The position numbers and the translations under genes are program-made. The notes beneath the pieces were generated by a model. It was not told the DNA's origin, did no database searches, and was given only the letters and a program-made list of their open reading frames with translations. This document shows positions 29,996 through 51,956 of a DNA stretch of 64,000 nt, one piece after another. The first letter of the stretch is position 1. Each line of letters starts with the position of its first letter. The stretch spans positions 1 to 64,000 of IMG/VR virus record IMGVR_UViG_3300045988_149331. The stretch is one strand, 5' to 3'. The DNA is from a virus.

Positions 29996-31483
29996 TTAGT
30001 TGGCGGCGCGTCCGATGTTGATCAGACGAACCAGTTTCTTCGGCGCGTACAGGAACGGCGTACCGTACAGCAGCACCATGAAGCGGTACGCGGGCGACAG
30101 AATCGCCAGGTCCATCTTCATCAGCGGGGCCAGCTGTGCGAACTCGATTACCTCGTTGTCGAACTGTACCAGGAAGGCCTGGTCGCAGTCGGGCAGGAAG
30201 TAGTTGTTGTCGCGGCACAGATCGCCGGCAGCACCTGCGTAACCCAGTTTCAGCTGAGCCACCGAAATGTCGAAGATCGGGTACAGCGGGCTGTCCTTGG
30301 TGCCGCCCTTCTTCGAACGATAGATGCGGTAGCCCGTTGCGGGGTGAGCGTTGTCCGTGATCGAGAACTTGAGGTCAACGACCGCGCCAGCGGTAACAGC
30401 GACCGGAGTCTCGTTCACAACCAGTGCCGACTCGCCGTGACGGTTGATGGCAGCAACGGCGTAGATGTAGTTGCCGGCATCCTCCGAGTTGAATTTCGAC
30501 GTGGTCACGCTGGCCACGACCGTAGCCGGAGCGGCGGTGTCCCATACGGGAGCAGCGGGCGACTTGGGATGCGTCGACTGAGCACCAGCCTTCTTGAACG
30601 GAGCCTTCTTGAAGAAGACGTCGTAATTCAGGCCGATGCGGCCGAACTGCGAGTCGAACGCCTGAACGCGCTGACCCATGATGCCGGCGCTGGTTTGGGC
30701 GGTGTTGGGCTGGATGAACTTGTTGCCGTAGAACGTCTTGACGAAGTCCGACAGAACGGCGGGGGGAGCGTACAGCTCCGTGCCGAGGCCGTAGTTCTCG
30801 ACGATCGAGTTGGCGGCGCTCTCGATGGGGTCCTCCGTCAGGCCGCGACCACGCAGGTCGATGACGTTCTCGGAGTTGAGGTAATCGTCCAGGCCACTCC
30901 ACGCGTCGGACTGCATCTGCTGGGCGAGCAGACCGTTGAACTCCTGCGGGATGATGTCCGAGTTGCCGGTGTACAGCGACTTGTTCAGCTTGCGGAGAAT
31001 CCACAGCGTACCGTCCTTGATGGTACGCTCCATGATGTTGCCCACCATCGTGTTGACGAGGGTCATCTGGTGCGTGACGGACTTGGTGACACCGAGGTAT
31101 TTCACCAGCTGAGCCCGGCGGATGTAGATCGAGTCCTCCTCGTCAGGGAGTTCGCCTTCGTTGGTGAAGCCACCACGGTCAGCACCGTACGATGCCAACT
31201 GGTTGTACTCCTCAACGGTGTTGTAGGCAGCCTTTTTCGGCAGGTTCTTCCACAGAACGATGTCGCTCTCACGGAAGGTCAGGTGCTTCAGAGTGCGCTC
31301 CAGCGACTCAACCTTCAGCGGCGCACCCGATGCATCGGTCAGGTTCGTCGTCTGACGACCCGTGATGTCGGTGGCTTCGAGGGCTTTGTTCAGCTGAGCA
31401 ACCTCTTCCTGAGTGGACGAGCCGTACTGAGCACCACGCGAGTTGATGCCGTAGTCGGCGAGATTGATAGAAAGTCGGTCCAT
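29996..31483 (-). CDS. major capsid protein
   Basis: 495 aa, directly downstream of the protease-scaffold gene. Highest local GC and followed by a hairpin. Called from position and size; no family signature verified. Confidence 0.6.
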   Translation of the reverse strand: MDRLSINLADYGINSRGAQYGSSTQEEVAQLNKALEATDITGRQTTNLTDASGAPLKVESLERTLKHLTFRESDIVLWKNLPKKAAYNTVEEYNQLASYGADRGGFTNEGELPDEEDSIYIRRAQLVKYLGVTKSVTHQMTLVNTMVGNIMERTIKDGTLWILRKLNKSLYTGNSDIIPQEFNGLLAQQMQSDAWSGLDDYLNSENVIDLRGRGLTEDPIESAANSIVENYGLGTELYAPPAVLSDFVKTFYGNKFIQPNTAQTSAGIMGQRVQAFDSQFGRIGLNYDVFFKKAPFKKAGAQSTHPKSPAAPVWDTAAPATVVASVTTSKFNSEDAGNYIYAVAAINRHGESALVVNETPVAVTAGAVVDLKFSITDNAHPATGYRIYRSKKGGTKDSPLYPIFDISVAQLKLGYAGAAGDLCRDNNYFLPDCDQAFLVQFDNEVIEFAQLAPLMKMDLAILSPAYRFMVLLYGTPFLYAPKKLVRLINIGRAAN

Positions 31484-31520: not shown

Positions 31521-33062
31521 TTATTTTACTACCTCGTACCCGGTCTCAGCCTTGAGGCGGGCGATAATGTTGCTGGGGAGTCCGTCCTCGGGGCGAGCCT
31601 CAAACGCCAGCAGCGCGTCGCCATACTCCTTGTCGTATCCCTTGGCGAACGACGCCTGATCCAGGAGTTCCTTCACGGCTGCGGGGTTATCGGTGAACGA
31701 GATGCGGTTGGCGCCGCCCTTCTCGATGTCACCCTCGGGTTTAGCCTTGGCGAAGGCGCGGTCTACTACCACAGCCGACCGCAGCGATTTGGGGCGCGGT
31801 ACATCGTTGCCGTAGCGTTCCAGTTTGTCGGAGAACTCACTGATGGTGTCAGATTGGCCCTTGATGATGTTCTCCAGTTCGGCAATGCGCTTGGAGTCCT
31901 CGGCGCGCTTCTGACGAAGATCGTTCACCAGCACGGCAGTAGCGCGGATGTAGGTCTTGAAGTCGTCGCCAACGCTCTGAATAGCCTTCAGAATGTCGTT
32001 CGACTTGCCCTTCTTCATCTTAGCACCGTTCTTGTCGCACTGCTCGAAGCCTTCGTCGTCCTCCTCGGTCTCCTCTTCGGATTCCTCCTTCTTGCCGGCC
32101 TTGGCATTCTTCATGTTGGCGGCGTTATGACGCGGCTCGTCGTGGGTTTCGTCTTCCTCACCCATCTGGCCGTCGGCGTCATCACCCTTTTTCACCTCTT
32201 CGTCACCTTCAGCCTTGGCGCCTTTCGGGGTAATTCCCAGAGCGTCATAAGCCTTCTCGATGTCCTCGGAAGTGATGGATTTTCGTTTGTTCATAACCGA
32301 TATGTTTTTGATTAAAGTGTATACACCTTGTGCGTTCGGTATTGTAATATTTGGAATGTCCTTGAAGATACATTCCATGACGGAAGATTTCGAGAAGGTT
32401 TGTTTCTTTGGCTGGCCGTCAACCGATTCAGGCATCAGCGCTGCGCCGGACTCAGTGGTCAGAGCCTTCTTCTCGGTTTTTCCACTGCGCTCTTCAGCGT
32501 TATCGTCCTCTTCCTCCGCATCAACGTCGATACCGTCAGCGTCGATCTGACCCTTGATGATATTTACGAACGTATGGGGGTTTTTGGGCATATGGGTTAC
32601 AGCGACGCCTGTGATAACGGCCTTGACGATCTTATTGTAGAGCGGCGAGTTCTTGTCGTTAGAACCACGCTTTACGACCTTACCCTCGATGGAATACCCC
32701 AGACGGCGCGTCTTGCTGTCGTGTTCGAGGGTTTTGGCCAGTTCATATACCTCGCACGCCATAGGCGACGAAGCGTACAGGTCGCTCTCGATCCAAAGAC
32801 CTTCAGGACGCAGTTCCACCTTTGAAGGTTCGCCAATGATAGCCGACGGGGAGTTCTTGGCCTGGTGGTGCCAGTTTACCATGCCTGACTTCTTCAGCGG
32901 GTCAACGTCGAAGCCTGTCGGGTCCAGGTATTCGCCATCAGCATCCTTATCCATAGTGGAGGCAATACCGCCAATACGCATAACAGGTTCGCCTGCTTCG
33001 TCGGTGGCCTTCTCGATGCGTCCGATGGGGCACCAGAAATTGAATTTATCGTCCTTAAACAT
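31521..33062 (-). CDS. prohead protease fused to an acidic scaffold-like region
   Basis: N-terminus 'MRIGGIASTMDKDADGEYLDPTGF...VNWHHQ...IIGEP...LGYSIEGKV' resembles HK97-type prohead proteases. Followed by long Glu/Asp/Lys-rich segments. Confidence 0.55.
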   Translation of the reverse strand: MFKDDKFNFWCPIGRIEKATDEAGEPVMRIGGIASTMDKDADGEYLDPTGFDVDPLKKSGMVNWHHQAKNSPSAIIGEPSKVELRPEGLWIESDLYASSPMACEVYELAKTLEHDSKTRRLGYSIEGKVVKRGSNDKNSPLYNKIVKAVITGVAVTHMPKNPHTFVNIIKGQIDADGIDVDAEEEDDNAEERSGKTEKKALTTESGAALMPESVDGQPKKQTFSKSSVMECIFKDIPNITIPNAQGVYTLIKNISVMNKRKSITSEDIEKAYDALGITPKGAKAEGDEEVKKGDDADGQMGEEDETHDEPRHNAANMKNAKAGKKEESEEETEEDDEGFEQCDKNGAKMKKGKSNDILKAIQSVGDDFKTYIRATAVLVNDLRQKRAEDSKRIAELENIIKGQSDTISEFSDKLERYGNDVPRPKSLRSAVVVDRAFAKAKPEGDIEKGGANRISFTDNPAAVKELLDQASFAKGYDKEYGDALLAFEARPEDGLPSNIIARLKAETGYEVVK

Positions 33063-33261: not shown

Positions 33262-35031
33262 CTATCCGAGTACAAAGATATGCTTGAGATACACCTGTAG
33301 GCCAGGATAACCTTCTAATAATCCAGATGTACATTGGAAATCAAGAACTCCAGCTGCACGACGGCGAACGTTTATTGAGCCATTGGAGCTGGTTGCGCTA
33401 TCAAAGAATCCCGCAATTGTATTCCATGAATTGTGCGCCGAAGGTAAATCGTAATATACGACCACATTTCCAGACGGACTAAATCGCCCATCGCTGTCGG
33501 CCATTTCGAAACAAAGCATTAATGTTACCCCGGGCGATAATTTTGCTAATTCGGTAGATCCATAGGGGATGATTGCACCGTTGCTTTGGTTGAGTTCTAC
33601 ATCCGATCCTGGTAGCTTTATTACCGTTTGTGCTCCTCCGCCGCCTAATTCTGTCCATTGAGCAGTAGTTCCGTTCGTCGAGCCGGAGAAAGTACGGCTA
33701 CCATCAGCTGTTTGGAGCAGATAGGTGTATAAAACAGGCCCCGATGAACTCCTAAAACAATGACCGTATAAAGGCGCAGTAACACCTGAAGGTCCCCCTA
33801 CGATTGTGCCTGCTGTACATATGATCACTCCTTGACCTACAGCCAAATTTCTTATGCTAATATTCGTAGGGTTATTGAAATTAGATACCTGTATTTTTGT
33901 TGCTGGCAGGTCTTTGATAGCAAGACTTACTCCCGTCATATCCACAGCCCCAGTTGTTGCGTTAACGGCGATGCGTTGTATTGCAGCATTAAACGTTGAG
34001 CCAGTACCTACCGAAGGGCAAATAAAGACATATTGATCGGTTTCAGCGCTGTCTTGAGATCGGATAAAGTCTAACTGACCGTAGTCTGCCTGATCGGGGG
34101 TACTGAATATCATACGGAAGATATCGGCAACCTTAACGAATTTCAAATCGCCAGTAGGCACACCCCCGCCTTCGCCGTATGTGAATTCGTATACTGAGGC
34201 TTCGATTCCTGTGGGAGTGCCAAGAATACTCCAGTTCGTAGCGTAAATGTTCGTAGACTGGTAAGTATACAGATACGAACGTTTATAAGTATTGATTGAA
34301 ATAGAGGTACCAACGTATTTAATCGACGAAGCAGAAATTTTTACAGCATAGCCTACCAAAGCCGAGCCAGGTCCGTTAGCGGCGTCATCGGCGCTCGTAA
34401 ATGTGAACATCTCGCCAACGGCAATATCACCCATCACGCAATTGCTGAAAGTGTTACTCTTAAAATCAGTAACCGTCAGATATTTCATGGCGCTGCCGCC
34501 GCTGCCGCCGCCTCCGGCCCACTCCATCATTACACCCATACCACCCCAGTCGTCATAAGCGGTCGAGTGCAATTTCTTGATGATTGCTTCGTCTGTCAGA
34601 GTTTGGAGTGTAAGCCACGCCATGGGGATACTGGACGAAGGAATGACGCGAATATAACTGTCGGTAAGATGGAAAATTTGGAGACCGTTCGTGCCTCCGG
34701 TTTCGGCGTTCGTTCCTTGGAGTATATTGACAATAAACGCCATTTCAGGTTTTCCTGGTGCGCCTGACGCGAGATTCCCTGTCACGATACGCAGACGTCC
34801 GATATTCGCCGCTGCGGTCAGTAGTCTGAGCATGTCCCAAAGTTTTACCTTGCTATCGCCGTATGTAAAATTGTTGGAAATGGGCAAATTGCCAAGCGAC
34901 GGATCTTGCGAAAACGTCAACGCCGCAATCTGGCTTGTGTTGATCTTGTTAGACTCAGAAACCTGAATTTCTTCTTGTCCGCTGGCTGAAGACTTCAGCG
35001 TCAACGCAGACATGTCAATAAAAGTAGGCAT
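33262..35031 (-). CDS. low-GC repeat-domain protein of unknown function (moron-like insertion)
   Basis: 589 aa with Gly linkers (GGGGSGGS, GGGGA) separating beta-rich segments of similar pattern. Has its own promoter motif and hairpin, and lower GC than the flanks. Confidence 0.6.
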   Translation of the reverse strand: MPTFIDMSALTLKSSASGQEEIQVSESNKINTSQIAALTFSQDPSLGNLPISNNFTYGDSKVKLWDMLRLLTAAANIGRLRIVTGNLASGAPGKPEMAFIVNILQGTNAETGGTNGLQIFHLTDSYIRVIPSSSIPMAWLTLQTLTDEAIIKKLHSTAYDDWGGMGVMMEWAGGGGSGGSAMKYLTVTDFKSNTFSNCVMGDIAVGEMFTFTSADDAANGPGSALVGYAVKISASSIKYVGTSISINTYKRSYLYTYQSTNIYATNWSILGTPTGIEASVYEFTYGEGGGVPTGDLKFVKVADIFRMIFSTPDQADYGQLDFIRSQDSAETDQYVFICPSVGTGSTFNAAIQRIAVNATTGAVDMTGVSLAIKDLPATKIQVSNFNNPTNISIRNLAVGQGVIICTAGTIVGGPSGVTAPLYGHCFRSSSGPVLYTYLLQTADGSRTFSGSTNGTTAQWTELGGGGAQTVIKLPGSDVELNQSNGAIIPYGSTELAKLSPGVTLMLCFEMADSDGRFSPSGNVVVYYDLPSAHNSWNTIAGFFDSATSSNGSINVRRRAAGVLDFQCTSGLLEGYPGLQVYLKHIFVLG

Positions 35032-35068: not shown

Positions 35069-35593
35069 TCACGCCATTATTTCAACGTGTATTGCAGGCT
35101 CGTTGGCGTCAATAGAAACCTTCGGACTGTCGTACTTCGTATCGCCAAGCGGCGTAATAATTTTACGGCACTTTTCTTCTTTGGCCAATGCTTTGGTGAA
35201 GTCGCGTGGGTTTTTCATGCGGGTGATCGACAGATCGATGATGTTGCACTGACGGTACAACTCCTCCGTGGTGCAGTGGAGCGAAACACGTTGCCCCATT
35301 GAGGCTTGACGCTCGATTTCAGCTACCATCAGTTTCTCAACCTCAGACCGGGCCTGCTTTTTGCAGTTATCGTCAAAAACCTTCACAACAGCTGCACCGG
35401 GGGCGCGATAACGAATGCGCTTGCCGGCGCACAGGTTGTCGGCCATAGCCTTGGCCTGTGTTTCGGGGGTGCGCAGCGTGGAGGTAATGACGATATCGGG
35501 GTTGTTGGTATTATCGGCGACGCGGCTGATAAGGTCTTTCACCGTGTCGTTAATCGCAAACGCCGACTTGTTAGCGTATGTAATATTTGCCAT
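35069..35593 (-). CDS. hypothetical protein (weak resemblance to LAS/hedgehog-type zinc peptidases)
   Basis: 174 aa with 'VITSTLRTPETQ', 'VSLHCTTEE...NIIDLS' and 'EPAIHVEI'. Spacing is not canonical. Confidence 0.3.
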   Translation of the reverse strand: MANITYANKSAFAINDTVKDLISRVADNTNNPDIVITSTLRTPETQAKAMADNLCAGKRIRYRAPGAAVVKVFDDNCKKQARSEVEKLMVAEIERQASMGQRVSLHCTTEELYRQCNIIDLSITRMKNPRDFTKALAKEEKCRKIITPLGDTKYDSPKVSIDANEPAIHVEIMA

Positions 35594-35987
35594 ACGGAAT
35601 TGTGATTTTGAGTGCTTCTACACTGATTGAGTTCGTATTCATCCAATCCAGCAAGTAGTCCGACTTATCGGCATTGCTTAATTTTACAAAGTCCGCAGGC
35701 GTCACGGCGCGTTTCGCCAGGTACTCCTTGAATCCTTGTTCCATGAGGGCAATACGCTGCCCCTCCATGGCTACCTTCTGGAACAACGGCGACAACTCAT
35801 CGAGAGTGAGAGTTTCCTGAATAGCCTTACGAAATTCCCGTGCGTCAATGTCATTCAACATCGGGAATTCGCCGCGGAACGGTATAAGTTCCGACGGGCG
35901 TTTACGATCGATGTATCGCGACGCTGCGCCTCCTACAACGGAGGTCGTCAGATTGCGCGGTACACCATATTTGCCTTTGCTTTTCAT
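35571..35987 (-). CDS. hypothetical protein
   Basis: 138-aa ORF. Confidence 0.5.
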   Translation of the reverse strand: MKSKGKYGVPRNLTTSVVGGAASRYIDRKRPSELIPFRGEFPMLNDIDAREFRKAIQETLTLDELSPLFQKVAMEGQRIALMEQGFKEYLAKRAVTPADFVKLSNADKSDYLLDWMNTNSISVEALKITIPYGKYYIR

Positions 35988-35990
35988 GGC

Positions 35991-38372
35991 TTATTTCCTT
36001 GTAATTATTTTCGAACGGTTGAACACGATCATGAACGAGTTTCCGCAGTGATTACCGTTAGGCTGGATCATGGCGTCATAACCCTTCAACGCAGCGTATA
36101 CACCCAATACCTCGTCACACGATCGTGCGGCTTGATATATTCCGGCATAAATGTCCTTGTCGGGATTTCCGACGCTGTTGGTAGCCAATTTTCGGGCTGC
36201 ATCACGCTTTTCCTGATAGATACGGAAGGCGTCAGCGCGTTCCTTTTGAAGACGGTTTACTTCGTCGTCGAGATTATTGACAGCCTCCTTGACAGCTTCT
36301 TCGATACGGCCGTAGTGCTCGCGCATGATCCATTCCTTAAACTGGCGGACGGGATAGTTGTACGGACGTGAAAAGCCGCTTTTGCGCTTAATAGCGTTAT
36401 TCTCGTACCGGTAACGCGAGAACAGAAAACGCTCCGTAGTATTCGGCATTTTGATGACCAAATCACCACTCCCGTTGTTCTTCTCGGTAATAGTACCGCC
36501 ATTGGCCGTTACCCAGCCGCGGAGGTGGTTGTTCACGAAATCGTCAAATTTCATATAGTCCGGGTTGCCGTCATCGTCGATAGCACCCCAGTCGATGATC
36601 TGATCAATCTGCAACGGGATGTCCTTGTAGGCAAAGTCGTCCCAATGCATGTTGGCCTTAACCTGCTTTTCGGTAGTGTTGGTTAGGGTGTTCAGTTCTT
36701 GAGACAACTTGTTGTAGTTATCCTCCGCGTCTTGCTGCTCCTTAAGAGCCTTCTTGGCTGCAGGAGAAGTGGTGAGCGGCAGTTTCTGAATTTCATCACG
36801 AGCGTCTTGAACGGTAATCACCTTGGCGGAATCATCCAGTACAGCTTCGATGATAGCCCCGTTGTAACCAGCGTAACCACGGGCGTTTTTGTAAGACGAT
36901 GTGTGCTTGTACCCCGACGGCGTTTTATTGGCGTTATCAGAATCGTTGACGTGGAAATAGATTCCTTCGCCGTAAATACCTTGCGTACCGTAGAAACACG
37001 CGTCGTTGTACTTGAAGTCGTCAGCGTAATATTCCGTATCACTGCCGCGCACATTAACGCCACGGAACAGATGGTATTTTGACTGCGCCACCTTGGCCCA
37101 GAAGGTATTATCATCTACAACGTCAGGACGCACATCGAAACCGCGGGCCTTGCAAATATTGGACAGCATCTCCCATCCTACCTGATTATTGGTATTGGTT
37201 AACTTGTCCGCAGCACTGATTCCGCTGACGCTACTGTAGATTTCCGCCAACTCATCATCGGTGAACTCGCGGTACATTTCCGCATCCGGTTTCAGAGTTC
37301 GCGGCGCAACCTTTCTTTGCTGGCGTTGCAACTCTATCTCGTACTGTCCTCTGATGCGATCAAGGTCTTTGAAACGAGCCTCGATGATAGCACGCATCTT
37401 CGGTTTAGAGGCCAATTTACCAGCGTCGAAAAACGCCAACACCTCGTCTTTGCGTGCCTTTAAGGCGTCAATTTGGTTGATAAAATCCCGCGGCGTAAGG
37501 TTAGCTACAATCTGTGGGTTGTAGCGAACCATGCCGTCCCAGTCGATTTGACTGTTAAAAGGCTTATTGGCGCCTTGTGCTCGGTAGTCGAACGTACCGC
37601 CGTTATCCACGCGATAGACTTTGCCGGCGGCGTCAACCAAGCAGTTGTCATTCTGGTAGATATCCCAGTTGGCCAAAAAGGCATCAACGGCGAAGCCTTT
37701 GGCCATAGCGTCATAGTCCTTGGCCTGCGGCTCACTCATACCGCGCATGTACGGCGAAATAAGCGTCAAATCGGTTCCGTCGTCGTACATTTCATATTCT
37801 GGCGTGTCGAGCCCCAAGAGGTCATAAACCTGCGCGGCGTAGTATTCTGCAGCAACGTGACCGCGATTAGTGTTTTTAGAACTCTTGACGACAAACTCAC
37901 GCCCCTTAGAGTCCTTCATGAGTTTGGCTCCAGTACTACCGCCGAGGTCCTGCACATAGGTGAGGTCTGAAGGATCGGCAGGGAACATCTCGTTCAACTG
38001 CTTCTCTTCCTGAGCCAGCATGGCTTTAGAACGAAAGGCTCCTTTTCCAATAGGTTGGCCGTTGGCGGTCTTGTAAACTCGCCAGTCGTACGTCGTCTTG
38101 GCGTTAGGAGTCAGCGTCCAAATGTACACCACGCCATTCACGACCTTGGTCTGGCCAGGCATGATGGCTTTGGCTATCTCGGGGTCTTGATCGATACCGT
38201 GGATGTGGTCATACACCGATTTGGCGACGTACAGGTTGTACGAATAGTCGTCAGCAAAGTCTTCAGACCGCGCCTTATACGCTTCACACGCCTTCTCCAG
38301 TACGGCATCAGATATCTCGCCCTCAGCGTTACGGAGGGCGAAGACATCGAGTGCTTTTCTGAGTTCATCCAT
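35991..38372 (-). CDS. multidomain candidate packaged effector: protein-kinase-like domain plus ART/PARP-like domain
   Basis: Kinase-like features: 'LGGSTGAKLM', 'EFVVKSS', 'DAFLANWDIYQNDNCLV', 'RVDNGGTFDYRAQG'. ART-like features: 'YHLFRGVN', 'GIYGEGIYFH', 'GAIIEAVL'. Confidence 0.55.
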   Translation of the reverse strand: MDELRKALDVFALRNAEGEISDAVLEKACEAYKARSEDFADDYSYNLYVAKSVYDHIHGIDQDPEIAKAIMPGQTKVVNGVVYIWTLTPNAKTTYDWRVYKTANGQPIGKGAFRSKAMLAQEEKQLNEMFPADPSDLTYVQDLGGSTGAKLMKDSKGREFVVKSSKNTNRGHVAAEYYAAQVYDLLGLDTPEYEMYDDGTDLTLISPYMRGMSEPQAKDYDAMAKGFAVDAFLANWDIYQNDNCLVDAAGKVYRVDNGGTFDYRAQGANKPFNSQIDWDGMVRYNPQIVANLTPRDFINQIDALKARKDEVLAFFDAGKLASKPKMRAIIEARFKDLDRIRGQYEIELQRQQRKVAPRTLKPDAEMYREFTDDELAEIYSSVSGISAADKLTNTNNQVGWEMLSNICKARGFDVRPDVVDDNTFWAKVAQSKYHLFRGVNVRGSDTEYYADDFKYNDACFYGTQGIYGEGIYFHVNDSDNANKTPSGYKHTSSYKNARGYAGYNGAIIEAVLDDSAKVITVQDARDEIQKLPLTTSPAAKKALKEQQDAEDNYNKLSQELNTLTNTTEKQVKANMHWDDFAYKDIPLQIDQIIDWGAIDDDGNPDYMKFDDFVNNHLRGWVTANGGTITEKNNGSGDLVIKMPNTTERFLFSRYRYENNAIKRKSGFSRPYNYPVRQFKEWIMREHYGRIEEAVKEAVNNLDDEVNRLQKERADAFRIYQEKRDAARKLATNSVGNPDKDIYAGIYQAARSCDEVLGVYAALKGYDAMIQPNGNHCGNSFMIVFNRSKIITRK

Positions 38373-38378
38373 GGCTGG

Positions 38379-40136
38379 CTATTCGAACAACAGGGTTTCT
38401 GCCTTTTCGATCGACATTTCATCAACGTGGAGTGCGCCAAGATCAATCTCTTTGGCCTTCCACGTATCAGGGATCATGTCTTCAGCACCGAGTGTTTTGG
38501 CGCGACGCTTGATCCAGCGGCGAGCGCGTTCGGGGTTCTTAGCGTTGCCGGCGAGGCGGATGGCATTCTTCAGATCAGACTTGTTGCGGATCGGGAACGA
38601 GCCGTCGGGGAGGGCCTCCTTTTTCTTGGCGAGTTTATCGCGCTGCTCTTCGGTGAAATCGGCCTTTTCGAGCGATTCTGCGCCGTTAAGTAACTGCTCG
38701 GCCTTACTGATCGCGTCGGAGGTTTCGATCGGTTGAATGGCCTCATACGCGAGACTCTTCGTCAGCGCACGCACGGCACTCTTCTCCCACTCCTTTTGCT
38801 TCGCACCGATGAGGTTCGTCCACTCACCGCCCTGTTGGGCCATACGGTTAGAACGTTCCGTAGAGCGTTTTTCTGACAGAATGGTACCGAAAGTACGGGT
38901 GGTAAACTTGGCGGGATCGATCTTATCCTTATTCTTGACGATCAAATCGAACAGCTCTTGGCGTTCGGCCTTGTCCTCTTCAGGATCGTCAAGGTGAGGT
39001 GCCTGAGGTACGTCCATACTGGCGAATCGGTCTTTTAGTACCTCGATAGTTTCATCAACCGTCAGGTACACCTCCGACGAAAGCGTAGCGCGGCTGATGA
39101 TAGCTTTAGTATCTTCGTTCTTGGCGAGGTTCACCAAGTCCTTGTTGGTCATGATGATGATACGTCCCGTGAATACGAAATTCGACTTGACGTCTTCAGG
39201 GTCGCCGACGACGCGTTTACCACTGGCGGCAGTAGCTTTCTTCATGATAGAAGCCAGGTCGGCGCGGGTGATAACGGAATCGGTATCGTCGAACAGCAGA
39301 ATCTTGCCGTTGTGGGCCTTGAGTACGCCCAACAGCTGCTTCTTGGAGTTGATATCACCAAGTTCAACGTAGTCATAATCGCCGTCGCCAGGGGCGTCGG
39401 TCTCAGCGTCAAACGGACGCTTGTTGAGCAGTTCGGCGATCTTCTTGAAACCGTACGACTTACCAACGCCTGCGCCTCCGGCCGAGATCATGAAGCGTTG
39501 CTCCTTGTTGTCCAAGAACTCCAGATACTGGCGGTTCAGGTCGTACATTACCTCAACGGGCGGCTGGTAGTCGGGGTCCTTACGCTTCATCTTGTAGACG
39601 AAACGGTCGTAGGCGATACGGTCTTGGCGGTTCTGGAGTTTGTTGAATTTCTTCTGAACACGCGGGTCCTCGGGGTTGAGGAACCAGTCTTCCATAATCT
39701 CGCCATCGACGTTTTCACCTTCGCCGTCGTTAATATCAACCTTGTCTTGGGCGTTAGTAGGCGCAACGTCGTCCTGCTTGGAGGTCATCTTCAGCAGCGC
39801 GTCGAGTGTACCGGAGGTATCAACAGCCGAAGCGTCGAATTCGTCACGCGTCTTCAACTCCTCATAGGCAATCTTACGCAACTGCGCGTTGCCCTTGGGG
39901 TTGTTTACTACTTTGAGCAGATTGTCTGCGGAGGTACGCTTGGCCCACTCTTCAAGGCTGGCGGAACCGCCAGCAGAACCCGATTTACCTTCGTCGGCGG
40001 CAGGAGCCTTCTTGTTCTTGGCGTTTTTGTCGAGACGCCAGTTGAACTTTCCTGGCTTGTATTCGGTCCAAACCCACGGCTGTGTAGGGTGGTGGTCGCC
40101 GACGTTGTGTTTTGCTTTTTGGATAATGTCTGACAT
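38379..40136 (-). CDS. AAA+/P-loop ATPase domain protein with N- and C-terminal extensions
   Basis: Walker A 'SAGGAGVGKSY', Walker B 'KILLFDDTD', sensor-1-like 'IIIMTNK'. Confidence 0.6.
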   Translation of the reverse strand: MSDIIQKAKHNVGDHHPTQPWVWTEYKPGKFNWRLDKNAKNKKAPAADEGKSGSAGGSASLEEWAKRTSADNLLKVVNNPKGNAQLRKIAYEELKTRDEFDASAVDTSGTLDALLKMTSKQDDVAPTNAQDKVDINDGEGENVDGEIMEDWFLNPEDPRVQKKFNKLQNRQDRIAYDRFVYKMKRKDPDYQPPVEVMYDLNRQYLEFLDNKEQRFMISAGGAGVGKSYGFKKIAELLNKRPFDAETDAPGDGDYDYVELGDINSKKQLLGVLKAHNGKILLFDDTDSVITRADLASIMKKATAASGKRVVGDPEDVKSNFVFTGRIIIMTNKDLVNLAKNEDTKAIISRATLSSEVYLTVDETIEVLKDRFASMDVPQAPHLDDPEEDKAERQELFDLIVKNKDKIDPAKFTTRTFGTILSEKRSTERSNRMAQQGGEWTNLIGAKQKEWEKSAVRALTKSLAYEAIQPIETSDAISKAEQLLNGAESLEKADFTEEQRDKLAKKKEALPDGSFPIRNKSDLKNAIRLAGNAKNPERARRWIKRRAKTLGAEDMIPDTWKAKEIDLGALHVDEMSIEKAETLLFE

Positions 40137-40171: not shown

Positions 40172-40981
40172 CTACACCTCCACCGCGTCAAAGTCAATAT
40201 CAAATTTCTTGTACACAATTCGCAACTCCGGTACGCCGTTAATTGGCTTCTTCTTTTCGTCAATACGAGCGTTCAACGGCCAGCGCTTGAGTATGATGTC
40301 GTGCGCCCGCTGCACGCGCTCCTGGCGTTCGTATACGTCTTGGAGACCGCCGCCCTGGTTGGCTTCCTTGTTCATCTTACTCTGGAGAAGGAACCGCACG
40401 AACCGCGCGTAGACGATTCCCAGGTACATGCATTTCAACGAATAGTCGATGTCGCATTTCAACTCCAACTTTTCGTCAAAGTCCAGTTCCAGCGTCCGTA
40501 GCCCCTTGAAGACGATCAAGTGTGGAATACCGCCGTACTTGAAGCGCGGGCTGACGTCGGTACAACTCCAGTCGAAGGCGCTCTTGCCCATCGTTCCATA
40601 CTCAAAATCGGTTTCCATGACCTCGCGATCAAACTCCTCAAAGAACTCGCTGAGTTCTTCCGGCGTTTTCAACGACAGCCCACACTTGGCTTCACCGTCG
40701 ATCGAGTAGAAGAAGTTGGCGATGTCGTCATCCATCACCACCACCGGGTGGTTCTTGCGGAGGTAGGTGTTCTTGCAGAAATTTACCACGTAGCTGTAGC
40801 CGCGGTTCGAGGCCGGCAGCACAATCAGCCGCTCACGGGCGTGACCCGCTTCGACGTATTTTTCAACGTCCTCCTTTTCGACCACAATATTGTAGTCAAC
40901 GCCGCCCTTTTCCAACAGTTTAGTCGTGACGCACTTGGGGCGGTTCTTGGACACGACGAAGAATTGACAGTTCATACTCAA
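40172..40981 (-). CDS. GT-A-like glycosyltransferase (TET/JBP-associated-GT-like), paralog of 57887..58702
   Basis: 'FFVVSKNRPKCVTT', 'VVVMDDDI', 'KMNKEANQGGGLQDVYE...RWP'. Each aligns with the corresponding segment of 57887..58702. Confidence 0.5.
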   Translation of the reverse strand: MSMNCQFFVVSKNRPKCVTTKLLEKGGVDYNIVVEKEDVEKYVEAGHARERLIVLPASNRGYSYVVNFCKNTYLRKNHPVVVMDDDIANFFYSIDGEAKCGLSLKTPEELSEFFEEFDREVMETDFEYGTMGKSAFDWSCTDVSPRFKYGGIPHLIVFKGLRTLELDFDEKLELKCDIDYSLKCMYLGIVYARFVRFLLQSKMNKEANQGGGLQDVYERQERVQRAHDIILKRWPLNARIDEKKKPINGVPELRIVYKKFDIDFDAVEV

Positions 40982-41658
40982 AAGGGTAATTCACCTTCGG
41001 ACCATATTTCCTCGGGTGGGTTTTGTTCTATGAAACGTTGATATTTGTCTATCGTAGGCTCCAGCGACGGGTAGAACCTAAAGGCAAGTTCCCACTTGAC
41101 GTCAAACATATCGTCGCACGGGACTTTGCGCTTCATCAACACATTTTCGTTGTTGTAGCACTGAATTGTGACTTGCTGACGGCCACGCGAAGTGTACGAA
41201 TAGGGAAAGTCGCGATAGTACTCAGCCAGCGAAACCGTATCTTGAACAACGTCGTGAATGAACTGATTGAAGGGGTGTCCCAGCCCCAACGGCGCCAATA
41301 CGGTATAACCACGGTTGCGTCGTAGGAAACGACGCAAATGGTCGCGAAGCGTTTGTTCGGCGAAATTAAGCGTGTCAGTTCCGTATTTAGTTCTGAGGTA
41401 CGTATAGACGCTGGAGAGATTAAAGTCCTTGAAATGGTCGCCAAAATCGCTACAAATCGCATCTTCGAACCCAGTGTCGAAGACATCCATCGTAATACCC
41501 ATGAATTCATAGAGCGATCGCTGTTCTACAACGCGGTTTGGGTCGCTATCTACAGTAAGCACCCGAACGTCATATTCGGGTGCTACTAAAACGTGACAAG
41601 CGCTCATCAGGAGATCACCCGCGTGAGGCTCGACACACAGGTACTTTATTTTTCCCAT
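40978..41658 (-). CDS. PIG-L/LmbE-like deacetylase
   Basis: 226 aa. 'KYLCVEPHAGDLLMS' (HxxD strand, compare AHPDDE), 'VRVLTVDSD', 'GLGHPFNQFIHD'. Confidence 0.45.
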   Translation of the reverse strand: MGKIKYLCVEPHAGDLLMSACHVLVAPEYDVRVLTVDSDPNRVVEQRSLYEFMGITMDVFDTGFEDAICSDFGDHFKDFNLSSVYTYLRTKYGTDTLNFAEQTLRDHLRRFLRRNRGYTVLAPLGLGHPFNQFIHDVVQDTVSLAEYYRDFPYSYTSRGRQQVTIQCYNNENVLMKRKVPCDDMFDVKWELAFRFYPSLEPTIDKYQRFIEQNPPEEIWSEGELPF

Positions 41659-42605
41659 GGCCGCTTGTAGATTTTCTCAGCGCAGGGGCCGTCTTTCGAC
41701 ACGTCCTCAGCCATCTTCCGGATTTCCGGCGTGATAGGCGGCAGCGTTTGCTTACCCATTTTGTCAGGCAGGAAGCCGACGCGGACGCTTACGTGCGTAC
41801 ACCCCTGACACGGGCGGAAGCGGCGGTCGTTGTTGTACAGCATGACACGGGCGGCGTGAAAGCGCGGGTGGTTCCACAGGTCTTCGATGGGCATGTCGTG
41901 GATGTTGGCGATTGGGTACTCACCGCGGAAGTCATCACAGCACAGACACACCTGGCCATTCCACCTCACGTCCAGTTCGCGGAACGGGAAGGTGCACCGC
42001 TTGTTGTTGAACGAATCGTCAAGCGGGAAGGCCGCGCCGCAGTGGTTGGCCAGGCGACGTGTCATCTTGTTGGTGTCGTCGTGGGCGATAGGCGGCAGCA
42101 AGCAGATACGACGGCCCTGCTTGGGGTAGTAGTACGGAACGCCGGGTTCCAGCGTCACGACGTTGTACTTATCAACATCGATCTTCTCGACGAAATTCCA
42201 GTCGCCGTTGGCCGTGTAGCAGTCCACCAGAATATCGTTCATACCTGCTCCGAACAGCGCGTCGAGGTACGCCTCGGTGTCTTCAGCGTGGTTCATGGCG
42301 TAACCGTTACTGTACATATGAAACACAGCCTTCGGCAAGTGCTTGCGGAACGTGGCGACGATGTCGATGAAGGCAGGATTCAGCGTCGGTTCGCCGTGCA
42401 TAGCGAACACGAACTTACAGTTCCAACCCACCCGCGCTACCTCCGAAGCAATACGCTCGGCCGTTTCGACGGTCATGAAATTCCAGGGCTTGGTCCCCTT
42501 TTCACGCATACCGTGTAAACCGCAGAACGAACAACCGAGGTTACAGCCCTCGGTAGGTTCAATCTGCATGGTAAACGGGGGGTCTTGTACGATTTTGTTT
42601 TTCAT
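41646..42605 (-). CDS. radical SAM enzyme with a Cys-rich SPASM/twitch-like C-terminal domain
   Basis: CxxxCxxC 'EGCNLGCSFCG'. C-terminal 'RCTFPFRELDVRWNGQVCLCCDD...RPCQGCTH'. Confidence 0.8.
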   Translation of the reverse strand: MKNKIVQDPPFTMQIEPTEGCNLGCSFCGLHGMREKGTKPWNFMTVETAERIASEVARVGWNCKFVFAMHGEPTLNPAFIDIVATFRKHLPKAVFHMYSNGYAMNHAEDTEAYLDALFGAGMNDILVDCYTANGDWNFVEKIDVDKYNVVTLEPGVPYYYPKQGRRICLLPPIAHDDTNKMTRRLANHCGAAFPLDDSFNNKRCTFPFRELDVRWNGQVCLCCDDFRGEYPIANIHDMPIEDLWNHPRFHAARVMLYNNDRRFRPCQGCTHVSVRVGFLPDKMGKQTLPPITPEIRKMAEDVSKDGPCAEKIYKRPWEK

Positions 42606-44678: not shown

Positions 44679-44850
44679 CTTCCTTTAATTCTTTTACCGC
44701 CGCAGCCGTAGCGTCGGCGATGTATTTTAGTACATCGCCTAACGCAGCGGCGTTGTTGGCGTTCCATTCGCGGATAAACCGATCTTCGTACTGAGTAACG
44801 GTGGGGAATGGCGACGGCAAAAAGTGGGTATGTTTGGCGTTGTAAGGCAT
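44632..44850 (-). CDS. hypothetical small protein
   Basis: 72-aa ORF with a 1-nt overlap with the upstream gene. Confidence 0.4.
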   Translation of the reverse strand: MPYNAKHTHFLPSPFPTVTQYEDRFIREWNANNAAALGDVLKYIADATAAAVKELKEDGPKKNNLGRVSSEG

Positions 44851-46604
44851 TACTCTTGTTTGCTATCTTCCGGCAACCATTCCATTAAGACACGATTTCC
44901 TTCAATCTTATGGACCTTATAATTTTGGTCTCGGCCAATTAAAAATTCCCCCTCCTCTCCTCCGTAAACCCCTACTACTGGAGCAACCGGGCAACCCGCG
45001 GGAGCGATAATATCAAAATACATAGTCCCCTCGTCGTTGCTAATTTCAGGATAACATGTAGTGCTCATGAACGACTTATCGCTGAACACCTCCCCCTCCT
45101 TGAGATTTTTAACGAAATTATCTGCATCGTTTTCAAACGTAAGTTTCCTGTATAAAACGATATTTTGTCCCACTTTATTTTGAGAAATAAACGTATCAAT
45201 TCCGTTTATGAATTTATCCATTTTATCAGACGATACATCGACTTTGTTGCCGTAAAGGTATTTTCTCATTACAGCAAAGTCAAGATCATCATCTTCGTCA
45301 AAATCGTCATCATGGTCTGCGGAATATAAAACAATAGCTTTTACTGCATCCGAATCGCTTTCGTCCATGAAATCCTCATAAGCGTCAACAATCTTATCAA
45401 AGAATTCAGTTGCATCGTCGCTGTTTAATCGTATGAATTTTTCGCCGTTTATGTCCAACCCACTTTTCCGTAAAGCCCATTTGTACGCTCTATCGGCCTT
45501 TTTGAGAACTTTTTCATTCGCCTTGTCAGAGGGTAATCGCTCAATGTTTTTCGCAGTACTGTCGCCTGATAATGAAATATTAAAACGTTCATTATCTGCT
45601 TCAAATTTCTTTTGTTCTTCTGCTTTTTCCCTTTTAACATCCTCGCTTTTTACCCAAAAAGCGATAGCGTCGTCTTTTGTGTCTTCAGGCACGATATTAT
45701 TTCTTTTCAAGACATCAATCGCCTTTTTAGATAATTCTTCGGGGGTTAATTTATACTTTGAATACTGTTCGTCGGTCTTTCGTAATTTACTCAAAAAGAT
45801 GCCAGCTATCGTCTTTGGTGTATCGCTACCTCGTACTTGATCCAGCAAATCTTTTTCGAATTTCTCATCAACGGCATCTTCGTCTTTATTGTCGTCATCC
45901 TTTTCACTACCCTCCCTGGCGTCAGGATCGCCGAACTTGGACGCGGCTCCCTCGACGTCAGCGATCTCCTTCACCGTCGTGGTCTCGAAATTGTCAACAT
46001 CGGCGTAGGGGTATTTGTCCACGCGGTAGCCTTCGCTGGTCTTGGTGACTACCAGATCGAAGCCGTCTTCGTCGCCGCCGACCTGCTTGATGAACGCGTG
46101 AGAAGCGTCTTCGACTCCAGCGTACTGCTCCAGGTCCTGGTCGTCCATCTGACGGAAGCCCATGGACTCAAACGAGGCCGTCGCCTTGGCGTCACCGTCA
46201 GCCAGGCCGTTACGCAACGAGGCGTCGCCCTTCTTGTTCTTGGCGCGAACGTTCACGCCGCGGCGTTCGAGTTCTGCGGTGGCCACCTTGCGCATTTCAG
46301 CGTCAGCCGACGGATCGTTAGCCACTTTCACCAACGCCTCCTCCGAAGCCGAGCGGGCATGATTCTGGAGGCTGACGTTGCCTCCGGGAACGCCACCTTC
46401 ACCCCCCTCAGCCGCGGGGTCTTTCTCCTTGGCTGCGTGACCGTACTCCTGACCCACACGTTGCAAGCGGCGGTTTTGAGCGTTGTCGGTGTATACACCG
46501 TGACGCGCTTTTTCGATTTCTACCTCTTCAGTTTCGGGGATGTTGACGAACCCCTTGAGGATTTGCTGTCGTTTTGCCTCACCGTAGTTGATAATCTCTT
46601 TCAT
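44850..46604 (-). CDS. candidate packaged effector with a C-terminal R-S-E ADP-ribosyltransferase domain (Alt/C3-like)
   Basis: 'NIVLYRKLT' (Arg), 'KSFMSTTCY' (S-T-T), 'GGEEGEFLIG' (ExE). The N-terminus carries 'EKARHGVYTDNAQNRRLQRVGQEY'. Confidence 0.65.
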   Translation of the reverse strand: MKEIINYGEAKRQQILKGFVNIPETEEVEIEKARHGVYTDNAQNRRLQRVGQEYGHAAKEKDPAAEGGEGGVPGGNVSLQNHARSASEEALVKVANDPSADAEMRKVATAELERRGVNVRAKNKKGDASLRNGLADGDAKATASFESMGFRQMDDQDLEQYAGVEDASHAFIKQVGGDEDGFDLVVTKTSEGYRVDKYPYADVDNFETTTVKEIADVEGAASKFGDPDAREGSEKDDDNKDEDAVDEKFEKDLLDQVRGSDTPKTIAGIFLSKLRKTDEQYSKYKLTPEELSKKAIDVLKRNNIVPEDTKDDAIAFWVKSEDVKREKAEEQKKFEADNERFNISLSGDSTAKNIERLPSDKANEKVLKKADRAYKWALRKSGLDINGEKFIRLNSDDATEFFDKIVDAYEDFMDESDSDAVKAIVLYSADHDDDFDEDDDLDFAVMRKYLYGNKVDVSSDKMDKFINGIDTFISQNKVGQNIVLYRKLTFENDADNFVKNLKEGEVFSDKSFMSTTCYPEISNDEGTMYFDIIAPAGCPVAPVVGVYGGEEGEFLIGRDQNYKVHKIEGNRVLMEWLPEDSKQE

Positions 46605-49942: not shown

Positions 49943-50200
49943 TTAGCGTGAATATAGGTAGGCGGTACGGTCGTCCCAAACGAAATTGAAACTCATATCC
50001 CCTTGAGGATATTCCGTGATGGTAATGCCGTTGGCGGTTGTTTCACGTTCGATACGCCAGCCCGGCTCTCCCTGGCCTGTGCCGATAGGGGCATATCCGC
50101 GATACACGGTCCCCTCAGTGGAAGCGTCGATGATAGGCTTCGGCATGGCCTCCGAAAGCAACTGCACGATGGGTGCAGTATTCTTCTCGTTACTCGTCAT
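49943..50200 (-). CDS. hypothetical protein
   Basis: 85-aa ORF directly after the portal gene. Confidence 0.45.
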   Translation of the reverse strand: MTSNEKNTAPIVQLLSEAMPKPIIDASTEGTVYRGYAPIGTGQGEPGWRIERETTANGITITEYPQGDMSFNFVWDDRTAYLYSR

Positions 50201-51956
50201 GATCTATTGCTTTTTGTAAGTATTCGTCAAATGCGGCCACGAGCGGGTTTGCCTCACGGGCCTTCATAGTCTCTTCGTCGTCGCCTTGGGCGTAAAGGTC
50301 AAACGGGTTGCCGCCCTGGGCGTCGGCGTCTTCTTCGCCTTCACCACCAGCCACAGGCTCATCAGCCGGGCCGCCTGCTGCCTCCATACCCATACCAGCG
50401 GCCTCTTCGAATGGGTTTCCACCGCCCATTCCCATACCGCCCATCGCCTGCTGCTGTTGCTGCTTGGCGCTGAGGGCTTGTTGAATAACGGAGTTTTCGA
50501 TAGTATCACCACCCTTTTCTTCGCCGATGGCGGGGAGGTCCCACTTTTCGCGAATTTCATCGACGGTCTGGAAGGCTTGAAGGCGTTTGATGTCCATATC
50601 CAACTCCTCGGAAATAGTCATTCCGTTGAGGCCCATGAACACGAACTCAAAGTCAGGGTTAATCTGGTCAACGATGAACTTGTTAATCTTACGCTGGATG
50701 AACTTCAACAGCGGATACAGACCCTTGTCTTTCGACTGCTCCATACGTTGTTTTTGGCCATCGCCAAACGTCAGGCCGCTGTTGTTAGAACGTGATATGT
50801 CCCAACCGATTTCCGTCGGGTCGATACAGTACACAGCGCAAGCGATCTTAATCAGGTATTCCATCCAAGACGTGTACTCCATATCACGGTTGTTCTTCTG
50901 GAGGTCTACCCAGTCAATATCACCTTCGACGACAGGCGTCTTCCACGACTGCATAACGCCTGAAATCATCGCCTGCCACTGCTGTTTGAACTGCTGAAGC
51001 GAAGCCTCGTTGACGTTGCCCTTGATACGCAACAGACCCTTCGGGGCTGACCCCTGTGAGAAGAAACGGCGGTTGTACTCATCACCCCAAAGCATCGACG
51101 TGACGACGTTGATCAACTCTTCCAACTCGGAGTTCCCGTAGCCGTTAGCGTAGATAGACGTTGACGGGTTGCGGATTCCAAAGCACAACTCCCATGGATA
51201 GAACTGTGCCACCTTGGCTGTTTGGTACACCTGGACGTAGGCCGGGTAGTAACCGTCGATTTTTTGCCCCCAGTTTTGGCGGTCATCCATCATTACGCCG
51301 CGGAAATACGGGTTGTCGTATTCACCATCAAAGTACGAATCTGCCAACCGGAACGTAGCAGCGTCTACAGCCTGGAAACGTACCAATTTACCGCGGCGAT
51401 TGCGGATACATTCAAACGTCAGCTGGTCGAACGTCAACGAGTCGTCAACGATCTTACGTATGAACTCGTCAAATTCGTCACCATCCCACGCAGCAGTATC
51501 GCCACAGTTTAGGATGAAGTCCGTGATGGACGAAGCGATCTTGCAGTCTTGGGAGTCCATTTTCTGCTCCATACCGTGACGCGGCTTGCGTCGAATAACG
51601 AAGCCCGTCGAATAGCGGTCGGCCTGCGGTTCAGCAAAGTCGGCCACCTGATTCTTACGGGTCTTGATGATGGAGTTGATAATGGGGGTGCGGCTCATCC
51701 GGCGCAGCGTCTCGTACGAGAGTGAGAACGGCTTATCCTTGTAACCCAAAAACGAGTTGAACTCCAACGGGTCGATGAGATATGCCTTGGGGGCCACGTT
51801 GGCGGGCTTGCTTTGCTGGTTAAATATTTCGGCCGCTTTGAGTATGTCGGACGGGTTATCACCACGCAGCGCCTTCTCCACCAACAGCGATTTGCGGATG
51901 GTCAAGGCTTGCATGGCGCGTTCTACCGATTCCAATCTTTCTTTTACACCGGACAT
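50190..51956 (-). CDS. portal protein
   Basis: 588 aa, first gene of the head module. Acidic Gly/Met/Gln-rich C-terminal tail. A MuF-like gene lies in the same module. No family signature verified. Confidence 0.6.
   Translation of the reverse strand: MSGVKERLESVERAMQALTIRKSLLVEKALRGDNPSDILKAAEIFNQQSKPANVAPKAYLIDPLEFNSFLGYKDKPFSLSYETLRRMSRTPIINSIIKTRKNQVADFAEPQADRYSTGFVIRRKPRHGMEQKMDSQDCKIASSITDFILNCGDTAAWDGDEFDEFIRKIVDDSLTFDQLTFECIRNRRGKLVRFQAVDAATFRLADSYFDGEYDNPYFRGVMMDDRQNWGQKIDGYYPAYVQVYQTAKVAQFYPWELCFGIRNPSTSIYANGYGNSELEELINVVTSMLWGDEYNRRFFSQGSAPKGLLRIKGNVNEASLQQFKQQWQAMISGVMQSWKTPVVEGDIDWVDLQKNNRDMEYTSWMEYLIKIACAVYCIDPTEIGWDISRSNNSGLTFGDGQKQRMEQSKDKGLYPLLKFIQRKINKFIVDQINPDFEFVFMGLNGMTISEELDMDIKRLQAFQTVDEIREKWDLPAIGEEKGGDTIENSVIQQALSAKQQQQQAMGGMGMGGGNPFEEAAGMGMEAAGGPADEPVAGGEGEEDADAQGGNPFDLYAQGDDEETMKAREANPLVAAFDEYLQKAIDHDE

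Follow-up and report, generated by a model that had tools for sequence, protein, structure and literature searches.

The 64,000-nucleotide stretch analysed here (the window) covers positions 1 to 64,000 of the virus record IMGVR_UViG_3300045988_149331 from IMG/VR and encodes, on the minus strand at 35991-38372, a 793-aa protein. With moderate confidence, this protein is interpreted as a four-part "polyvalent-type" phage effector, composed of an N-terminal module, a protein-kinase-like domain and a divergent ADP-ribosyltransferase (ART)-fold domain of R-Y-D type that is split by an insertion. Effectors of this general kind, i.e. head-associated polyvalent or Alt-like proteins combining protein-modifying enzymes, are already known, while the sources searched describe neither domain family, nor the R-Y-D configuration, the large insertion or the regular pairing of kinase with ART. 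The parts of the protein and the residues discussed below are as follows (residue numbering throughout with Met = 1; residue conservation counts refer to an alignment of 75 orthologues):

37980..38372, minus strand: N-terminal module, aa 1-131; three helices, then a small three-stranded sheet (AlphaFold2 model)
37320..37979, minus strand: protein-kinase-like domain, aa 132-351 (AlphaFold2 and Foldseek, 75-orthologue conservation, BLASTP)
37884..37886, minus strand: codon of K163, predicted ATP-binding Lys on strand 3, invariant (75/75)
37605..37607, minus strand: codon of D256, DFG-equivalent Asp ("VDNGG"), 74/75 orthologues
36774..37193, minus strand: N-terminal part of the ART-like domain, aa 394-533 (C-terminal AlphaFold2 model, family profile, hidden Markov model)
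36114..36773, minus strand: insertion of ~220 aa, aa 534-753 (secondary structure, linker-length comparison)
35994..36113, minus strand: C-terminal part of the ART-like domain, aa 754-793 (family hidden Markov model positions 138-185, E = 8e-8)
36075..36077, minus strand: codon of D766, proposed strand-5 acidic residue of the R-Y-D triad, invariant in the 75 orthologues and in a 30-sequence family alignment

An earlier note, made from the sequence alone, had reported an open reading frame (ORF) of 793 aa at this position, with the strand unstated. The ATG-to-stop frame was found to span exactly 35991-38372 on the minus strand, as do nearly all long ORFs in the window, and consists of 793 aa followed by a stop codon (35991-35993). 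The gene is real rather than a chance reading frame, since 113 full-length homologues sharing 34-98% identity were recovered on metagenomic contigs of ~90-125 kb, none of these homologues carrying a Pfam annotation or a name. The gene is tightly packed, starting 6 nt after the stop codon of the upstream gene and ending 3 nt before the next, and no paralogue of any of its modules was found in the window. The N-terminal module carries a highly conserved "PGQTKVV..Y..T....YDWRV" motif in the orthologue alignment, and matches of its hidden Markov model (HMM) were confined to proteins with this kinase-then-ART build (745-830 aa in length), with no other match in the window. All seven motifs on which the earlier note had based its reading were located in the translation:

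LGGSTGAKLM, aa 143-152
EFVVKSS, aa 159-165
DAFLANWDIYQNDNCLV, aa 230-246
RVDNGGTFDYRAQG, aa 254-267
YHLFRGVN, aa 433-440
GIYGEGIYFH, aa 465-474
GAIIEAVL, aa 505-512

The first four of these motifs had been read as elements of a protein-kinase-like domain, and this was supported by structural comparison. An AlphaFold2 (AF2) model of the full-length protein, generated from the 75 orthologues, reached a mean predicted local distance difference test (pLDDT) score of 89.9 and gave 26 matches at E <= 1e-3 in a Foldseek search of the PDB, all of them to kinase or pseudokinase domains (probability 1.0, E ~1e-4). The best structural overlap was with Helicobacter pylori CtkA (3akk/3akl), giving a TM-score normalised by target length of 0.46-0.51, followed in rank by PAK, Myt1, Chk1, RNase L, AmiN, PI4KB and PI3K-delta. 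The model displays the two-lobed fold of the protein-kinase-like (PKL) superfamily, with its elements in kinase-type order – strand, Gly loop, strand, Lys strand, Glu helix, two strands, helices, a short strand pair and then the DFG-like Asp. Specifically, GGSTGA (144-149), K163, E176, D230, N235, D237, N241-D242-N243 and D256-N-G are invariant or at least 97% conserved, covering the Gly-rich loop, the strand-3 Lys and helix-C Glu, the catalytic-loop Asp/Asn and the DFG-type Asp of the PKL residue set. In BLASTP the domain shared 38% identity (E = 9e-30) with the kinase region of P0114, a MuF protein.

At the level of named families the picture was different. A Pfam scan of the 793-aa protein at E <= 1 showed no kinase family, including PI3_PI4_kinase (PF00454) and Act-Frag_cataly (PF09192), so that the resemblance to PI3/4-kinases and actin-fragmin kinases put forward in the earlier note was not supported by family profiles; PI4KB and PI3K-delta do occur among the structural matches, but below CtkA and the eukaryotic-type kinases. 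The "D..N.D....NDN" loop is reminiscent of that of type II PI4K. A profile search of PDB sequences gave only a marginal match to DMPK at the DFG region (E = 1.6). Because the Foldseek matches are exclusively to kinase-type domains and the motifs are present but no Pfam kinase family was matched, aa 132-351 is best placed in the PKL superfamily and outside any named family. With its catalytic residues complete, the domain is predicted to be an active phosphotransferase. A pseudokinase, or an enzyme of other chemistry (AMPylation, glutamylation, or phosphorylation of small molecules or lipids) in place of protein phosphorylation, would also be in keeping with the lack of a Pfam kinase match, with the atypical catalytic loop "DAFLANWDIYQNDN" and with structural neighbours that include the small-molecule/lipid enzymes AmiN, PI4KB and PI3K-delta and the pseudokinase RNase L. 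We regard this as rather unlikely, given that the full set of ATP-/Mg-binding and catalytic residues is invariant across the orthologues, which speaks against an inactive pseudokinase, and that the top structural match, CtkA, is a Ser/Thr protein kinase.

The C-terminal region, modelled separately as aa 380-792 with a pLDDT of 93.6, showed a succession of elements that fits the core layout of ARTs, a strand-helix-loop-strand-helix unit for NAD+ binding that bears [H/R]-G on strand 1, Tyr or Ser on strand 2 and an acidic residue on strand 5. In its N-terminal part, F-R437-G438 lies on strand 1 and "GxG-I-Y472" on strand 2, followed by a helix with A497..Y500 and by a beta-hairpin with "AIIEAVL..AKVIT"; its C-terminal part comprises the helix "LGVYAALKG", the strand "Y-D766-AMI" and the strand "FMIVF-N785-R786". 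"FRG" and "GxGIY" are invariant or nearly so in the orthologues, and invariant residues of the region are R410-G411, R437-G438, G462, G470, Y472, Y500, G757, D766 and N785-R786, together with A761 and G764 in the C-terminal part. Both the order of secondary structure in the model and the invariance of R437-G438, Y472, Y500 and D766 in the alignments are thus consistent with an ART core. The Glu of GAIIEAVL (E509), which the earlier note had taken as catalytic, is not conserved, being Glu in 26/75 and Lys in 21/75 orthologues; the conserved acidic residue is instead D766 in "GYDA", ~255 residues further towards the C-terminus and beyond the ~220-aa insertion.

This insertion (aa 534-753), located between the beta-hairpin and the "GYDA" strand, consists of two long helical hairpins and a small alpha/beta subdomain, with W595 and G625 invariant. 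Its HMM matched only proteins of the same kinase-ART build, and Foldseek gave no significant fold match. Judged from linker lengths, it splits the ART-like domain, because the linker measures 190-243 residues in the target and its orthologues and usually 15-130 residues in the wider family described below. The insertion sits in the hypervariable linker of the family just ahead of strand 5, the site at which ARTs have their target-recognition loop (the ADP-ribosylating toxin turn-turn, ARTT, or acceptor loop), and may therefore have a role in target choice.

A search of 1.84 billion representative proteins with a profile built from aa 393-532 defined the wider family, yielding 958 clusters at E <= 1e-3 (clusters at 50% identity). 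The domain in this R-Y-D family is compact (~190 aa), with invariant R-G, GxGxY, GYDA and NR, and is built as a core, the linker and a second block, "GYDA...hhhLNR". Both halves of the target domain matched the family HMM, at positions 3-139 (E = 9e-30) and 138-185 (E = 8e-8), on either side of the insertion. Pfam scans found no domain in ten short family members and only coiled-coil noise in 27 orthologue C-terminal halves, and profile searches of the PDB with orthologue C-terminal alignments gave nothing useful. A tblastn search of phages and plasmids with a K-rich family consensus found nothing, and the same approach with a real family member found only PSS2 and Gordonia phages. Tandem arrays of three to five copies occur in the metagenomic proteins P0123 (2703 aa, with the maximum of five), P0132 (1423 aa, four copies), P0137 and P0145. 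P0123 additionally contains a GNAT acetyltransferase and P0132 a C-terminal Alt/VIP2-type ART.

Similarity of this family to known ARTs was found at profile level, with all signals below curated cut-offs. In P0132, Pfam placed ART-PolyVal (E = 2.3e-5) and PARP (E = 0.0024) inside the R-Y-D copies, and the family consensus matched ART-PolyVal at E = 0.029, with the member P0258 matching in the same register. Sub-threshold matches of the family profile to PDB sequences included PARP15, tankyrase-2 and an "ADP-ribosylating toxin", accounting for three of seven independent proteins. In hhalign, the family aligned with five PARP catalytic domains at P = 4.6e-4 and a probability of 33% in local mode, a result weakened by the PARP sequences having been entered by hand; the global mode gave junk. 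None of 200 column-shuffled controls reached the score (29.9 against a mean of 12.0, sd 2.1), and the alignment paired "hhRG" of the family with "LFHG" of PARPs, "GxGTYxA" with "GKGxYFA" and "A..YA" with "S..Y". This was further supported by the virion RNA polymerase (vRNAP) of the Roseovarius Plymouth podovirus, which bears a genuine ART-PolyVal domain (Pfam 9.8e-9) and could be aligned with the family element by element (LYHGT/LYRGV, GLFFT/GTYTA, ARDYA/AESYA, GGYDGAIV/KGYDAIKV and MVVKR/VVLNR), the "GYDA" of the target aligning with its "GGYDG". Over the full-length podovirus vRNAP, the family HMM gave no meaningful match, and hmmsearch and hhalign picked a non-ART region. Assignment of the family as "N4-ART" was rejected at HMMER level, the family HMM having no match to N4 vRNAP.

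ART-PolyVal is known from polyvalent proteins of phages and conjugative elements, often in multiple copies, and carries His, Tyr and Asp on strands 1, 2 and 5, respectively (PMC5512222). The R-Y-D family shares with ART-PolyVal (PF18760)/Tox-ART-HYD2 the whole order of elements, from strand 1 "hh[H/R]G", the "G-h-[Y/F]-h-T/A" strand and the "A..YA" helix through the beta-hairpin and a helix to the "GYD[AG]" strand and the "hhVh.[KN]R" strand. Also shared are the Tyr of strand 2 (Y472) and the Asp of strand 5 (D766), as well as an occurrence in one to many copies in phage proteins fused to or encoded beside head proteins. The family differs in having an invariant Arg in place of the His on strand 1 and an invariant "LNR" motif, and the target further differs by its ~220-aa insertion before strand 5. 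The R-S-E type of ART is a poorer fit, in that STS and ExE/QxE motifs are absent, PF03496 and PF01129 are unmatched in the target, and hhalign of the family with Alt/VIP2-type R-S-E domains showed no similarity (P = 0.43). On these alignments, the C-terminal domain is likely to be of a divergent R-Y-D type that is sister to the H-Y-D ART-PolyVal clade, D766 then supplying the acidic residue of strand 5.

Both domain families recur in fusions with head proteins. The R-Y-D domain forms the C-terminus of the MuF proteins P0186, P0191 and P0222, where it directly follows a NUDIX domain; in P0165 a NUDIX domain likewise precedes it, with MuF undetected, and in P0220 it follows a portal-2H phosphoesterase-MuF fusion. 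The regular presence of NUDIX (or 2H) beside the R-Y-D domain suggests a link with the processing of ADP-ribose or nucleotides. The R-Y-D domain is also combined with a minor-capsid-protein-2 domain in P0246 and is present in a gene of cyanophage PSS2 annotated as "minor head protein" or "head morphogenesis". The kinase-like domain was found in the MuF proteins P0114, P0115, P0117 and P0119 and also, among cultured phages, in large proteins encoded by those of Pseudomonas, Escherichia, Enterobacter, Yersinia, Aeromonas, Morganella and Gordonia. A 1479-aa protein of Gordonia phage Phendrix, gp66 (L008 4794-9233), is encoded directly after the portal gene and combines the kinase-like domain (aa 106-248) with an R-Y-D domain (aa 1085-1475, E = 9e-27). 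Fusions of this kind have been argued to mark effectors that are packaged in the head and injected (PMC5512222, PMC9503650), so the link to MuF-type polyvalent or injected proteins drawn in the earlier note finds support in the fusions to MuF, portal and minor capsid domains seen elsewhere.

In the window itself the gene lies among virion genes, and the features relevant to its context are as follows:

58722-61442, minus strand: large terminase
50190-51956, minus strand: portal
44850-46604, minus strand: 584-aa protein with a C-terminal Alt/VIP2-type ART, aa 450-569 (Pfam ADPrib_exo_Tox 2.2e-9)
41646-42605, minus strand: radical-SAM/SPASM protein
40172-40981, minus strand: TET-associated glycosyltransferase (TAGT)
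38379-40136, minus strand: 585-aa upstream partner gene (phrog_1250, weak AAA_30)
35571-35987 and 35069-35593, minus strand: two small ORFs
33262-35031, minus strand: 589-aa protein
31521-33062, minus strand: prohead protease
29996-31483, minus strand: major capsid protein

The gene had been placed between MuF/portal and the prohead protease, and the portal and the protease were indeed identified on either side of it; MuF was detected neither in the target nor in the ORFs tested between the two. The order of partner gene, orthologue, small genes including a GH108 lysozyme, protease and capsid is kept in two distant relatives, L003 and L005; their orthologues (P0062 and P0107) are ~36-39% identical to the target. 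The partner gene (568-663 aa) lies directly upstream of the orthologue in both (8001-9992 in L003; 8302-10008 in L005) and overlaps it by 8 nt in L005. By analogy with the fusions to head proteins and because the gene retains its place beside those for protease and capsid, packaging followed by ejection is the most likely fate of the kinase-ART protein.

Several observations weigh against packaging. Neither the target nor an adjacent gene was found to carry a MuF or portal domain, a capsid-targeting signal could not be shown in the protein or the window, and gene position alone is no proof of packaging because genes without a structural role (radical SAM, glycosyltransferase) lie in the portal-to-protease block as well. 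The protein could instead be expressed late and stay unpackaged, as an intracellular enzyme comparable to T4 ModA/ModB or T7 Gp0.7 that acts in the producing cell on host or phage proteins, e.g. by modifying head or scaffold proteins during assembly. The missing MuF or targeting domain, the clearly non-structural radical SAM/SPASM and TAGT genes of the block and the endolysin-like GH108 gene after the orthologue in the relatives would all agree with such an enzyme. It is nevertheless considered unlikely, as fusions of both domain families to MuF, portal or minor capsid domains recur elsewhere and the position directly upstream of protease and capsid is retained in relatives whose orthologues have diverged to the identity given above.

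For a packaged effector, we infer catalytic activity of both domains, their substrates, packaging, ejection and a role for the insertion. The protein would be produced late, alongside the head proteins, enter the prohead and be released from the capsid with the DNA, and in the new host it would phosphorylate (using ATP) and ADP-ribosylate (using NAD+) its targets, leading to host takeover or to the disarming of defences.

The ART assignment also has a number of results standing against it. Searches of Pfam, PHROGs and PDB sequences with the whole 793-aa protein gave no meaningful match. Foldseek of the aa 380-792 model against the PDB found no ART at E < 1 (the best match being OspC3 at E = 4), in a test weakened by the 220-aa insertion and by long helices dominating the list, and against BFVD it returned only uncharacterised phage proteins. 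All profile links to ARTs lie below curated Pfam gathering scores; for ART-PolyVal (gathering score 31.2 bits) the family consensus scored 15.6 and P0132 25.6 bits, and the target itself was unmatched. S779, at the position equivalent to the catalytic Glu of the PARP H-Y-E triad, varies among S, G, T, R and E. Of the ART-like domain proposed in the earlier note, the kinship with the superfamily is therefore retained, on the ART-PolyVal/PARP profile links and hhalign, and the catalytic Glu is not; the model matched no solved ART structure. These sub-threshold scores and the Foldseek result, together with the non-conserved Glu and the hhalign probability of only 33%, would suit a C-terminal domain that is unrelated to ARTs or a non-catalytic nucleotide- or ligand-binding domain, leaving the kinase as the only enzyme of the protein, joined to a binding or structural module. 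This is thought to be distinctly unlikely, because the independent weak signals (Pfam in P0132, the consensus, the PDB list, the shuffle control and the podovirus alignment) all point to ARTs in one register and because the family lies next to NUDIX and 2H domains, whose role is the processing of ADP-ribose and related nucleotides (PMC9503650).

Outside the orthologues, the kinase-like domain was followed by an ART-type domain in all 13 other architectures examined. The ART partner was supported by a tool in nine, weakly in one and by motifs read by eye in three:

R-Y-D type: P0149, P0172, P0178 and Phendrix gp66 (tool)
Alt/VIP2 type: Dolphis gp117, P0120 and ECML-606-1 gp47 (tool)
PF01129 (ecto-ART) type: P0116 and P0118 (tool)
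R-S-E-like motifs: P0114 (weak; hhalign P = 0.023)
R-S-E-like motifs: P0115, P0117 and P0119 (by eye only)

Tool-recognised partners thus span three families, R-Y-D, Alt/VIP2 and ecto-ART (PF01129). The C-terminal ~230 aa of P0115, P0117 and P0119 form a common unannotated domain with R..ESxS..ENE motifs, which hhalign against Alt/VIP2-type domains (P = 0.23) did not support as an R-S-E ART. The pairing occurs in phages of Pseudomonas, Escherichia and Gordonia as well as in the present phage; for phages of Yersinia, Aeromonas, Morganella and Enterobacter only the kinase-like domain is reported, an ART partner lying outside the pairing count. Two of the cultured carriers combine the kinase-like domain with an Alt/VIP2-type ART:

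L007 1-6704: gp47 of E. coli phage ECML-606-1
L001 4066-7734: gp117 of Pseudomonas phage Dolphis

The publications found on cultured phages with the kinase-ART dyad do not mention these proteins. The regularity of the pairing suggests, from domain composition, that the two activities are functionally coupled, although it could be a coincidence of packaging, since polyvalent proteins mix many domains. A stronger form of coupling, in which the two domains would be an obligate functional pair that modifies a single host target in two steps or in a composite manner, upon delivery from the capsid as infection begins (e.g. phosphorylation-primed ADP-ribosylation, or phosphorylation of an ADP-ribose adduct or of NAD+), is considered improbable, and if true would represent a new type of phage-imposed modification chemistry.

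We know of no kinase module described in T4 Alt, which resembles the present system in that its ART is encoded with late/head genes and is proposed to act on the host straight after DNA entry, and which differs in belonging to another ART clade, the R-Y-D family having no STS or ExE motifs. As an Alt/VIP2-type R-S-E ART that is packaged in the head and injected, T4 Alt provides the functional model for ARTs delivered from the head (PMC5512222, PMC9503650). CtkA (JHP940), the best structural match of the kinase-like domain over ~300 columns, is encoded on a mobile element, the tfs3 integrative and conjugative element, and its activity on target cells needs the type IV secretion system of that element (PMC5536186). 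CtkA differs from the target in sharing only 10-12% sequence identity, with no match at sequence level, and in being a stand-alone protein with no ART partner. T7 Gp0.7 is a phage kinase that phosphorylates many host proteins early and was recently reported to disarm defences (PMC13645617, PMC5512222); it differs in being early-expressed and not virion-associated, and homology to the target was undetected. The kinases known from polyvalent proteins are minimal domains of the Ser/Thr/Tyr-kinase superfamily, found mainly in (pro)phages of Bacteroidetes and Verrucomicrobia (Iyer et al. 2017, PMC5512222). They share with the target the setting in a phage polyvalent protein, and the capsid protein of the present phage has its nearest counterparts in Bacteroides phages (48% identity), then in SPO1-like phages; compared by description only, they differ in that the target domain retains a helical region beyond the DFG-equivalent.

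What happens in the first minutes of infection is decided by effectors delivered from the head, T4 Alt being the classic example, and to our knowledge few of them have been tested biochemically. The present analysis adds two families that are unnamed in Pfam or PHROGs, a kinase-like domain of large phage proteins and a widespread R-Y-D ART-like domain. If the predicted activities are true, many "hypothetical" genes of head modules could gain an annotation, and new anti-defence or takeover chemistry might emerge. As cultured carriers exist (Phendrix gp66, ECML-606-1 gp47 and Dolphis gp117), the hypothesis is directly testable.

Some further observations concern the neighbouring genes. The partner gene upstream (phrog_1250) may be a functional partner of the kinase-ART gene; its 585-aa product had no PDB or Pfam match, and a PDB search with a 542-aa neighbour was likewise negative. 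Two different ART-type genes are present in the head-gene region of this phage, namely the target and the gene at 44850-46604, which lies between the portal and the target; a homologue search with the fragment of this neighbouring Alt-type ART returned nothing. The radical-SAM/SPASM and TAGT genes inside the portal-to-protease block suggest DNA hypermodification or peptide maturation among the structural genes. The prohead protease ORF encodes 513 aa, of which only aa 5-186 match protease families, leaving ~330 aa that could represent a fused scaffold or another domain. The large terminase ORF is unusually long (906 aa); matches to other TerL families, and a weak one to a "DNA primase" PHROG, fall in its N-terminal ~390 aa.

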